This document shows positions 9,001 through 12,000 of a stretch of 24,000 bases of DNA, piece after piece; the stretch's first letter is position 1, and each line of letters opens with the position of its first letter. Source of the stretch: Abiotrophia defectiva ATCC 49176 (GTDB taxonomy: Bacteria; Bacillota; Bacilli; Lactobacillales; Aerococcaceae); contig NZ_KI535340.1 in NCBI RefSeq assembly GCF_000160075.2, positions 1,041,724 to 1,065,723 on the forward strand. Reading direction: 5' to 3'. The position numbers are program-made.

Positions 9001-12000
9001 GTGGCCCTTGCTTCAACTACGACACCTACGCCCAGATGGCGGCCGAAGTCGCGGCCTATATTCAAGACCAGACGCCGGTCCGCACCTATGTGGCCTGCTC
9101 CGCCGAAAATGAGGCCGTGGTCGACCGCTACAAGGACCAGGTTAAAATAATCCAGATGCCTAAGAAGGGCGGGGTAGGGCTGACGGATGCCCTGCACCAT
9201 ATTGCTGAAATTCTCAGTGGCCCAGCAGAGGCCGATTGGCCTCACTTCTTCCACTAGGAGGTGCCTTATGGATTGGACAGCCTTCTATGATTTACCCGCC
9301 TTGTCGGGAGATGAATTCGACCTGCATCAAGCCCTGGCCCAAGCCCTGACCGACCAAGGGCTCAGTCTCTATCGGGATCAACTGGGCTCCGTCTTGGGCC
9401 TCAAGCCAAGGGAGCAGGCGCCCTTTCGGGTCATGCTGACCACTAACCTGGATGAAAATGGCGGTCTGATTCAAGCCATTCGTCCGGATGGCCTCTTGGA
9501 CTTTGTGGCCCTAGGCCGCTATCAGAAGACCGATTATGTCAACCAAGTGGTCCGCCTCTTAACCCGGGACCATGTGCCTCATCTGGGCTATGGGGTCCTG
9601 GTAGAGGGACAGCCCTATCTAGCGCTAGGTGCGGCCTCAGCCCAGCAAGTGGCTGACTTGGGCATCCAAGTAGGGGACAGCTTTGTCTTAGACTTTTCCC
9701 GCCGGCAAATAGCTGGGGGCGCCTGGCTAGGTCGTAACTTGGCCAATCGGGCCAGCCTAGAGCTGATACTGGATATGAGTCGCCAACTTCAAGACAAGAT
9801 TGCCTATGAGTTGGCTGTGGGTGGCATTAGCCAGTCCCTAGTGGGGACTCGGGGGGCCATTACCGCCACCAATCTTATTCAACCAGACTTGGCCCTGGTG
9901 CTAGATGCTAGTCCGGTTCCTGCTTCTGACTATGACCCTAAGTGTCTCTATTTGCGTTATTTTGATAAGACCCTCTTACCTAACACGGCCTTGTTGGAAG
10001 CCATTCGCAAAGTGGCCCAGGAGCTGGGTTACCAAGTCAAGGGCCAGGTTCAAGAGGCCGGGACCGATGGGGCCTTTATCCATAAGACAGGGGTGGGGGC
10101 ACCGACCTTGGTTATTGCCTTGCCGCTCCTCCAGTCGCCAGGCCTTTATCAGTGTCTGGATCCAGCTAGTTTCGAGCCCGTGCGAGACACCCTGGTGGCC
10201 TTCTTGAGCCAACTGACCCCAGCCCAAGTCCAAGACTTTGGCTTTGGCAGTCGGGGAGGTGGCCCTCATGACCACTAAAGCTCAAGGTCAGGTGGACTGG
10301 CAAGTCCTGTCGGATTTATGTTGCTTACCCGGAGTGTCAGGCCATGAGGCAGGCATTCGGGCCTACCTGGACCGGCAGCTGACCATGTGCCAGCAAGGCA
10401 CCGACCCCTTGGGGTCTGGCCTCTACAGTCTAGCAGGTCAGTCCCGGTCACCCTTGTCCTTGCTCTTTTCCACCCACATGGATGAAATCGGTTGGGTGGT
10501 GCGGGCCATTGATGAGGCCGGCTATGTCTTCATTCAGGAAGTGGGGCGCTCCTGGTCCCATACCCTCTTGCAACAAGAAGCCCAGGTCTTCACCCAAGAT
10601 GGCCGAGTCTACACGGGGATTCTGGCCGGCCCGCAAGTGCACAGTCTCAGCCCTGAACAGCGCCAGCAAGTGGTGCCCATGGACCGGGTCTATTTGGATC
10701 TGGGGGTGCACAACCGCGACCAGGTCCGAGCTCTGGGTATTGAGGTGGGGGACTGGGTTTGCCCGGTGACCACTTTCCAGGCTTTGGCCAATCCTGACTA
10801 TCTGGCTGCCAAGGCCTTCGATAATCGGGTCAGTGTGGCTTTGGGAGTCTGGACCATGCAGGACCTGGCTCAGGGTTCTTGTCCCAACAAGGTGACCCTG
10901 GGGGCAACCGTTCAAGAAGAAGTGGGCTTGCGGGGGGCGCGGACCGTGGCCCAAGCCGTCAAGCCCCACATTGCCCTGGCCGTCGATACCTGCTTGGCAG
11001 GCGATACGCCAGCCGACCACAATCCTATTAAGCTAGGCAAAGGCGTCTCCCTGACGGTGGCCGATAATATGACCGTAACCCACCGGGGCCTCTTGCGTTA
11101 TCTAGAGGGAATCTGCCAGCGAGAGGGCATTCCTTATCAATTAGGTTGCTTCCTAGATGGGGGGACGGATGCGGGTAATATCCATAAGTCCCAGACCGGG
11201 ATTCTGGCGACGACCCTGTCCCTTCCCATGCGCTATATGCATACCCATCGGGGCATTTTGCATCGGGCTGATGTCCTAGCGGCCTATCGCCTCATGGTGG
11301 CCGTGGCGCGGGACTTGACGCCGGCTATCTACCAGCAGCTGCTGGACCAAAATTATCATTATCAAGTATAGAATCAATGACAGAAAGAAGGTGATAGCCA
11401 TGTGGGGAATCATTGCAACCTGGCGGATGGCCCTAGAAGGAGTCCAGGAAACCCTGCCTAGTCTGGCAGTCGGTGGCTCTGCGGGTGACGCCATTGAGCA
11501 AGCCATCAAGGCCGTCGAAGACTTTCCTTATTATAAATCCGTCGGTTATGGCGGTCTGCCTAATCGCCAAGGCCAGGTAGAATTAGATGCCGCCTATATG
11601 GACGGCAGTCGCCTGGACTTTGGGGCTGTTTGCGGGCTTCAGGATATTGCTAATCCCATTGGGGTGGCGCGCCGCCTCAGCCAGGAGCCGGTCAATAATG
11701 TCTTGGTCGCCCAAGGTGCCCGCCAATATGCCCTAGACCATGGCTTTGAAGCCAAAGAAATGCTGACAGACCGGGCTCAAATTCACTATCACAATCGCCA
11801 GGTGGAGTTGGCTCAAGAACAAGGCCTAGCTGCCTACGACGGCCATGACACGGTGGGCATGGTGGCCCTGGATGGCCATGATCACATGGTAGCGGGTACT
11901 TCGACTAGTGGCCTCTTCATGAAGCATCCCGGCCGGGTAGGCGACTCGCCTATGATTGGCTCGGGTCTCTATGTGGACTCCCAGATTGGAGGAGCCACCG

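Follow-up and report, generated by a model that had tools for sequence, protein, structure and literature searches.

M42/TET aminopeptidases are a model for self-compartmentalised proteolysis. Mixed oligomers built from M42 paralogs have been documented in both archaea and bacteria, including (i) the PhTET2-PhTET3 heterododecamers of Pyrococcus horikoshii, tetrahedral particles that combine two M42 paralogs of one organism and display different subunits at each apex (PMC4220976), and (ii) the YtoP-YsdC pair of Bacillus subtilis, found by in-cell crosslinking (PDB code, 9a5r; bioRxiv 10.1101/2022.07.26.501605). A stretch of 24,000 nucleotides from Abiotrophia defectiva ATCC 49176 (contig NZ_KI535340.1, positions 1,041,724 to 1,065,723; hereafter the window, to which all coordinates given without a locus or genome prefix refer) encodes two adjacent M42 paralogs, comprising an upstream protein with an M42 fold and without the catalytic set, named here psM42, and a downstream active-type M42 aminopeptidase, referred to as the partner. 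psM42 is probably a working non-catalytic partner of the live enzyme and not a decaying gene.

Compared to PhTET2-PhTET3, in which both archaeal subunits are active and the genes are not reported as adjacent, the Abiotrophia pair comprises one subunit without a metal site, overlapping genes and an association that is predicted. The pair resembles YtoP-YsdC in being bacterial, and the best PDB match of the live copy is the YsdC homolog 1vhe (E 1.9e-64); on the other hand, neither YtoP nor YsdC is described as inactive, and that pair lies outside any operon of the phosphotransferase system (PTS)/glycosylasparaginase type. The nearest solved structure and named family of psM42 are those of the YpdE-type M42 proteins (Shigella SF2450, PDB code, 1ylo; NCBIfam NF007421), although psM42 scores 118 bits where the family cut-off is set at 412 and differs by the loss of five of the seven catalytic residues.

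The operon that carries the pair recalls the ega locus of Enterococcus faecalis, reported as required for the utilisation of N-acetylglucosamine-asparagine (GlcNAc-Asn) and described as comprising a glycosylasparaginase, the Lac/Cel-family PTS enzyme II components B and C (EIIB/EIIC), a putative oxidoreductase of the GrdB-like type, together with a dipeptidase and a regulator of the GntR type (Combret et al., Res Microbiol 175:104169, via PMC11549559). Lac/Cel EIIB/EIIC, an Asparaginase_2-type glycosylasparaginase, a GrdB-like protein and a dipeptidase are common to both loci as far as this account of ega goes. The ega locus as described in PMC11549559 has the GntR regulator EgaR and no M42 genes, whereas the Abiotrophia locus displays a PRD/Mga-type regulator, its own EIIA, the psM42/M42 pair, CutC and DUF7916. 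By gene content, the Abiotrophia operon is an expanded relative of ega, and this likeness makes plausible, without going further, the connection with glycosylated substrates that a first-pass annotation of the window had proposed.

Dead paralogs are also kept as obligatory structural members of other oligomeric peptidases, such as ClpR in ClpP/R rings and the inactive β subunits of proteasomes, which belong to folds and families other than that of psM42. The pair is a variant of two things already known, hetero-oligomeric TET peptidases and pseudoenzyme subunits; a search of about 8.4 million literature full texts found nothing on an inactive or pseudo M42 subunit, or on M42 enzymes together with a glycosylasparaginase and a PTS.

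Catalytic residues, fold and gene junction

psM42 comprises 336 residues encoded on the forward strand at 9268..10278 (ATG start at 9268, TAA stop at 10276-10278), as defined by its reading frame and start codon, Pfam PF05343 (Peptidase_M42), ligand mapping, AlphaFold2 and Foldseek. The partner comprises 367 residues encoded on the same strand at 10268..11371 (ATG start at 10268) and is recognised by its Pfam score, its match to 1vhe and its HDDEEDH catalytic pattern. PF05343 scores 99 bits in psM42 (E 2.7e-28) and 268 bits in the partner (E 1.4e-79), both beyond the Pfam cut-off, and the two proteins are colinear and 27% identical (BLASTP E 7e-24).

M42 peptidases are defined in current surveys by seven catalytic residues, H, D (of HxD), D, E, E, D/E and H (PMC12516491, a survey of 2025). 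The partner preserves the complete set, including H70, D72, D185, E217, E218, D240 and H325. In psM42, the equivalent positions are occupied by N60, D62, A159, S190, L191 and D213, with no His at the last one, where Q289 or P291 is aligned; the resulting pattern, NDASLD-, keeps two of the seven residues and has lost five. The mapping relies on (i) BLASTP of the pair, (ii) HMMER against PDB 1ylo and 1vhe, and (iii) MAFFT with about 155 M42 representatives, and these three independent alignments are concordant on the catalytic positions of both proteins. His is absent from psM42 residues 274-333, and H272 of the motif IHK is the sole His conserved across the psM42 family, being conserved in active M42 enzymes too, outside the seven.

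The first-pass annotation had given the coordinates and the 11-nucleotide overlap of the two genes exactly, and its full ligand set for the downstream copy is borne out by all seven residues. For the upstream copy, the substitutions by Asn and Ala and the missing His that it listed hold, and the alignment to characterised M42 structures (1ylo, and 1vhe as a YsdC homolog) confirms that ligands have been substituted, but its pairing of the Glu-Glu ligands with QS has to be replaced by S190-L191 (SQ-SL-VG). The Asp of LVLD, which it took for the only ligand retained, is accompanied by the HxD Asp, D62.

The AlphaFold2 model of psM42, computed with 26 orthologs as input, shows a predicted local distance difference test (pLDDT) of 90.3 and a predicted template modelling score (pTM) of 0.88, and superposes on many M42 structures, with 1ylo_A as the best (TM 0.89, Foldseek) and 9a5r_A as the second-best. 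The confident model and its superposition identify psM42 as an intact M42 fold without a metal site, and not as a misalignment. With two of the seven residues, psM42 is an M42 homolog and not an M42 peptidase by the criterion of PMC12516491, a definition that would filter the psM42 clade out of surveys. The name 'M42 glutamyl aminopeptidase', assigned to psM42 by automatic annotation, is probably wrong.

The two genes meet in an 11-nucleotide overlap of the psM42 stop and the M42 start (10268..10278, forward strand), a candidate translational-coupling junction. Strong Shine-Dalgarno sites precede both genes on the forward strand, AGGAGGTG at 9256..9263 for psM42 and GGGGAGGTG at 10253..10261 for the partner, the latter within the 3' end of psM42. 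An equivalent junction, overlapping or abutting, is kept in 59/59 loci, where the distance from the psM42 stop to the M42 start ranges from -17 to +5 nucleotides, with modes at -8, +4 and -11. Regarding expression, the contigs include a 160-nucleotide piece inside psM42 from one true metatranscriptome, and a 160-nucleotide contig that spans the psM42/M42 junction and comes from a run of uncertain type; two runs marked 'RNA?' are probably DNA.

Conservation, selection and origin of the pair

Scanning prokaryotic species, each represented by a single genome, for the psM42 family motif [NT]DG[SA]FIHK[TS] discloses 58 loci, distributed over Abiotrophia (96% identical), Granulicatella, two Streptococcus species, Leptotrichia, Erysipelothrix, other Erysipelotrichaceae, Anaerococcus, Helcococcus and Lachnospiraceae, and word-based and exhaustive protein searches retrieve orthologs with 28-50% identity and the same degenerate motifs. 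The gene order GrdB-like, degenerate M42, live M42 is preserved in 58 genome loci, which represent at least eight genera or families, in addition to metagenome loci, and the wider order EIIB, EIIC, GrdB-like, psM42, M42, M20 in every locus with enough flanking sequence; most loci also have an Asparaginase_2 gene within the cluster or close to it, usually together with CutC and/or DUF7916. All 58 partner reading frames display HDDEEDH, the upstream copy is degenerate in every locus, and psM42 was never seen without an active M42 directly downstream in the loci examined. Because the 58 loci had been found through the psM42 motif, reverse sampling was performed from relatives of the active partner, and in three out of three loci (56%, 47% and 42% identity) a GrdB-like gene, a degenerate M42 and an HDDEEDH enzyme were again present.

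Among the orthologs of psM42, the residue at position 1 is one of N, S, P and A, the Asp of HxD never changes and Ser invariably replaces the catalytic Glu, with positions 3, 5, 6 and 7 free to vary. Of 57 orthologous loci, 56 have kept an uninterrupted reading frame. Median ratios of nonsynonymous to synonymous substitution (dN/dS; pairwise Nei-Gojobori, NG86) in nine clades range from 0.05 to 0.15 for psM42 and from 0.02 to 0.10 for the partner, the other operon genes being similar, and in most clades the psM42 value is somewhat above that of the partner. psM42 is under strong purifying selection, slightly relaxed, in keeping with the earlier view that it is not decaying, and combines the traits expected of a pseudoenzyme, namely catalytic loss, purifying selection and conservation over taxa (58 loci). 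The conservation under selection of a dead-plus-live pair in about 60 bacterial species implies that the dead copy probably functions as a partner without catalysis of its own.

Within Abiotrophia, psM42 is found in four of six other species, and the 2.04-Mb genome of A. defectiva contains five M42 genes, four of them ordinary. A sample of 34 genomes across other genera of this family and order gave no psM42 at E <= 1e-30. A profile built from the psM42 alignment and run against 400 Bacillota genomes recovers the own copy at 363 bits and the next hit at 214 bits, the level of ordinary M42 proteins, and does not separate dead from live M42; the psM42 clade is rare in this sample. Altogether, these distribution data describe a module that is rare and patchy, yet widely dispersed. 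Several unrelated Bacillota genomes also display three M42 genes in direct tandem (G353:C24:49339-52363, G209:C37:9327-12351, G168:C15:48783-51854 and G375:C40:88167-91202).

A maximum-likelihood tree built from 79 M42 sequences groups the partner M42s into a single clade (99*) and places the psM42 sequences in two subclades of a separate starred clade that also holds further degenerate M42s and, towards its base, ordinary M42s that are active; the nearest types are YpdE-type proteins for the dead copy and YsdC-type proteins for the live one. The separate clades indicate that psM42 and its partner do not derive from a recent tandem duplication, an origin that the tree rules out, and the initial description of the two as tandem paralogs finds no support in the sense of a local duplication. 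The psM42 and partner subtrees show an identical branching order, as expected of genes travelling together.

More distant upstream copies with the same GrdB-like/M42/M42 order carry partial sites beside intact partners, with the patterns HDEKEDH, HDNEQDN, NDSNKEN and SDDAKQK (the copies with partial sites being L078:5109-6119, L077:1164-2234, L076:3089-4126 and L075:8001-9020), and the site decay in upstream copies is graded, ending at N/S/P-D-x-S-x-x-x. Two active relatives from the same larger clade as psM42 stand alone in unrelated contexts. It looks as if the catalytic site was lost stepwise after the pairing was established, an inferred order of events, and the graded series offers a ready case of stepwise catalytic-site loss inside a paralog pair.

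Possible association of the subunits and competing explanations

We infer a physical association of psM42 and M42 from the invariant adjacency of the genes, the coupled junction, the obligately oligomeric nature of the family and the documented mixed particles. The complex predictions were made for dimers. The predicted psM42-M42 heterodimer attains an ipSAE of 0.39 (runs 0.41, 0.38 and 0.39), compared with three controls of which the best gave 0.00; the tool rates this as 'weak support', a mark attained by 55 of 80 solved complexes and by 3 of 110 mismatched pairs. The psM42 homodimer has an ipSAE of 0.01, which counts neither as support nor as counter-evidence. The predicted interface is more conserved than the remainder of the protein on the psM42 side, with an entropy of 1.08 versus 1.92 bits elsewhere (Mann-Whitney p 1.6e-5).

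A structural element that bears on such a pairing is the flexible loop of the dimerisation domain, which in PhTET2 contains a conserved Pro-Pro-His motif whose His acts on the active site in the subunit next to it (PMC8993905). In the partner M42, the loop His is H125, a residue whose conservation within the partner clade is at least 90%. On the psM42 side, the loop is deleted (16 residues) in the subclade comprising Abiotrophia, Granulicatella, Streptococcus, Leptotrichia and Erysipelothrix, and almost every member of the second subclade has a loop from which the His is missing. Should psM42 and M42 pair through the loop interface, the active site would lie opposite a subunit lacking this His, which could, speculatively, leave room for a bulky glycosylated residue.

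On balance, it is somewhat probable that psM42 is a pseudoenzyme in a hetero-oligomer with the active M42, serving a glycopeptide-trimming operon. In mechanistic terms, (i) psM42 would have an M42 (TET aminopeptidase) fold unable to bind the two catalytic metals or to activate water, (ii) it would be made in fixed proportion with the active M42 through the overlapping stop/start junction, and (iii) both proteins would most likely assemble into a hetero-oligomer in which the downstream subunit alone is catalytic. The operon probably imports GlcNAc-Asn-containing remnants of N-glycoproteins, and the aminopeptidase would trim the residues N-terminal to the glycosylated Asn so that the glycosylasparaginase can act. 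Glycosylasparaginases need free α-amino and α-carboxyl groups on Asn, a need that an aminopeptidase and a dipeptidase would suit by trimming short glycopeptides. Through the dead subunit, the active one would acquire a changed architecture or substrate pocket, with the loss of the loop as part of this change and an effect on specificity that is speculative.

Several points weigh against this explanation. The M42 side of the predicted interface is no more conserved than the remainder of the protein; the tool regards predictions in the score range of the heterodimer as mostly wrong in the absence of a high prior, and the pass may reflect family likeness alone, as both proteins are members of one oligomeric family. 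In addition, metal binding is reported as the driver of M42 dodecamer assembly, as cited in PMC7948507 and PMC12516491, so that a metal-free psM42 may not fit the classical dodecamer, and PhTET2/3 hetero-particles are assembled from homodimers (PMC4220976), whereas the psM42 homodimer is unsupported. The GrdB-like gene is equally invariant beside psM42, and its product could be the true partner. Finally, the psM42 gene of Granulicatella elegans ATCC 700633 (L029:9908-10957) is interrupted by a premature TAA at a codon that reads CAA in sister Granulicatella genomes, which could be a strain-level loss or a sequencing error.

A rival explanation has psM42 acting alone or with the GrdB-like protein, as a ligand-binding protein or a new metal-independent enzyme that reuses the old pocket, and is unlikely, albeit deserving serious attention. 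The former active site displays family-specific invariants in place of plain drift, including S190 for the catalytic Glu and F270 at a position held by an invariant Asn in the partner; the [NT]DG[SA]FIHK[TS] loop is the most conserved stretch of the psM42 family; the GrdB-like gene lies directly upstream in nearly all loci; and the metal dependence of assembly, as cited in the sources above, counts against an easy entry of psM42 into the dodecamer. Nevertheless, the active M42 is always directly downstream, through junctions that overlap or abut, the heterodimer passes its controls where the homodimer prediction is unsupported, and no other catalytic arrangement is identifiable from the sequence. 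Compared to this rival, the notion of a duplicate in decay, still open by chance on its way to becoming a pseudogene, fares far worse: the loss of five of the seven catalytic residues, the dN/dS above that of the partner in most clades and the one premature stop speak for it, but intact frames in all but one of the 57 loci over phylum-level distances and dN/dS values far below 1 rule it out, the fold is predicted with high confidence and the replacement residues are themselves conserved, so that decay can be regarded as effectively refuted.

It is also highly improbable that psM42 is still an active metallopeptidase with displaced ligands or a different metal site. Invariant D62, E63, D233, D267 and H272 would offer candidate ligands, but all five are equally conserved in active M42 enzymes, and D62 is the only one that belongs to the catalytic seven. 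The three concordant alignments, together with a single conserved His that the family shares with active M42, rule out shifted ligands, and positions 3, 5, 6 and 7 vary freely.

A more specific proposal, which we hold to be rather improbable, extends the pseudoenzyme hetero-oligomer by making psM42 more than a passive scaffold. Its metal-free pocket, with Ser for Glu, Phe for Asn and the [NT]DG[SA]FIHK loop, would bind the (phospho-)GlcNAc of imported glyco-Asn peptides, and the loss of the His loop would open the neighbouring site, giving a glycopeptide-specific hetero-TET. Such an arrangement, if true, would explain the M42 peptidases FrvX, SgcX and YpdE in sugar-PTS operons; the gene of Escherichia coli YpdE, too, lies in a PTS-linked operon. 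As for the pseudoenzyme hetero-oligomer itself, if true, psM42 would be the first pseudo-subunit described for M42, a conserved dead subunit always co-encoded with a live one, and the pair would provide a natural system for (i) TET assembly without metals in half of the subunits, (ii) the way in which a trans-acting loop shapes specificity, and (iii) the trimming of N-glycopeptide remnants in oral and gut Firmicutes and Leptotrichia.

Operon context and further observations

The genes upstream of the pair, all on the forward strand, encode a PRD/Mga-type regulator with an EIIA2 domain (4659-6608; HTH, Mga, PRD and EIIA2 by Pfam), the Lac/Cel-family PTS components EIIA (6641-6961), EIIB (6978-7304) and EIIC (7340-8692), and the GrdB-like protein (8751..9257), which comprises 168 residues without selenocysteine and is assigned by Pfam GRDB and NCBIfam NF041545 (233 bits, cut-off 175). 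Across the loci, exceptions to the position of the GrdB-like gene directly upstream of psM42 are the insertion of DUF7916 in L043 and L045 and the lack of a called GrdB-like gene in L001; with this adjacency, the conserved unit is a triad of GrdB-like protein, dead M42 and live M42. Downstream of the pair and on the same strand, the operon continues with the Asparaginase_2/glycosylasparaginase-type enzyme (11391-12362), a PepV-like M20 dipeptidase (12311-13540), CutC (13501-14280) and DUF7916 (14282-15181), and is followed immediately by a convergent gene on the reverse strand for an M20 peptidase with an M20 dimerisation domain (15233-16468).

The stretch with EIIB, EIIC and the beginning of the GrdB-like gene (7001-9000) has a G+C content of about 0.475, versus 0.56-0.60 over the enzyme genes (9001-14000), a contrast that may reflect a mosaic origin of the operon. 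The C-terminal tail of EIIC (8612-8689; L023:6200-6293) is acidic and Asp/Leu-rich, ends in ...LSLDDLSFDDL and is conserved in Abiotrophia and Granulicatella. Some versions of the locus include additional genes for a Lyase_1 protein of the aspartase/fumarase type and a malic enzyme (L075:12434-15054; L082:9161-10540), an addition that fits the onward catabolism of released aspartate. In several lineages, a gene for an RDD-family membrane protein lies among the regulator and PTS genes (L003:7165-7749; L075:4750-5343; L078:1968-2570; L083:1614-2174), and the last of these loci, L083, also carries a MupG-type 6-phospho-N-acetylmuramidase-like gene.

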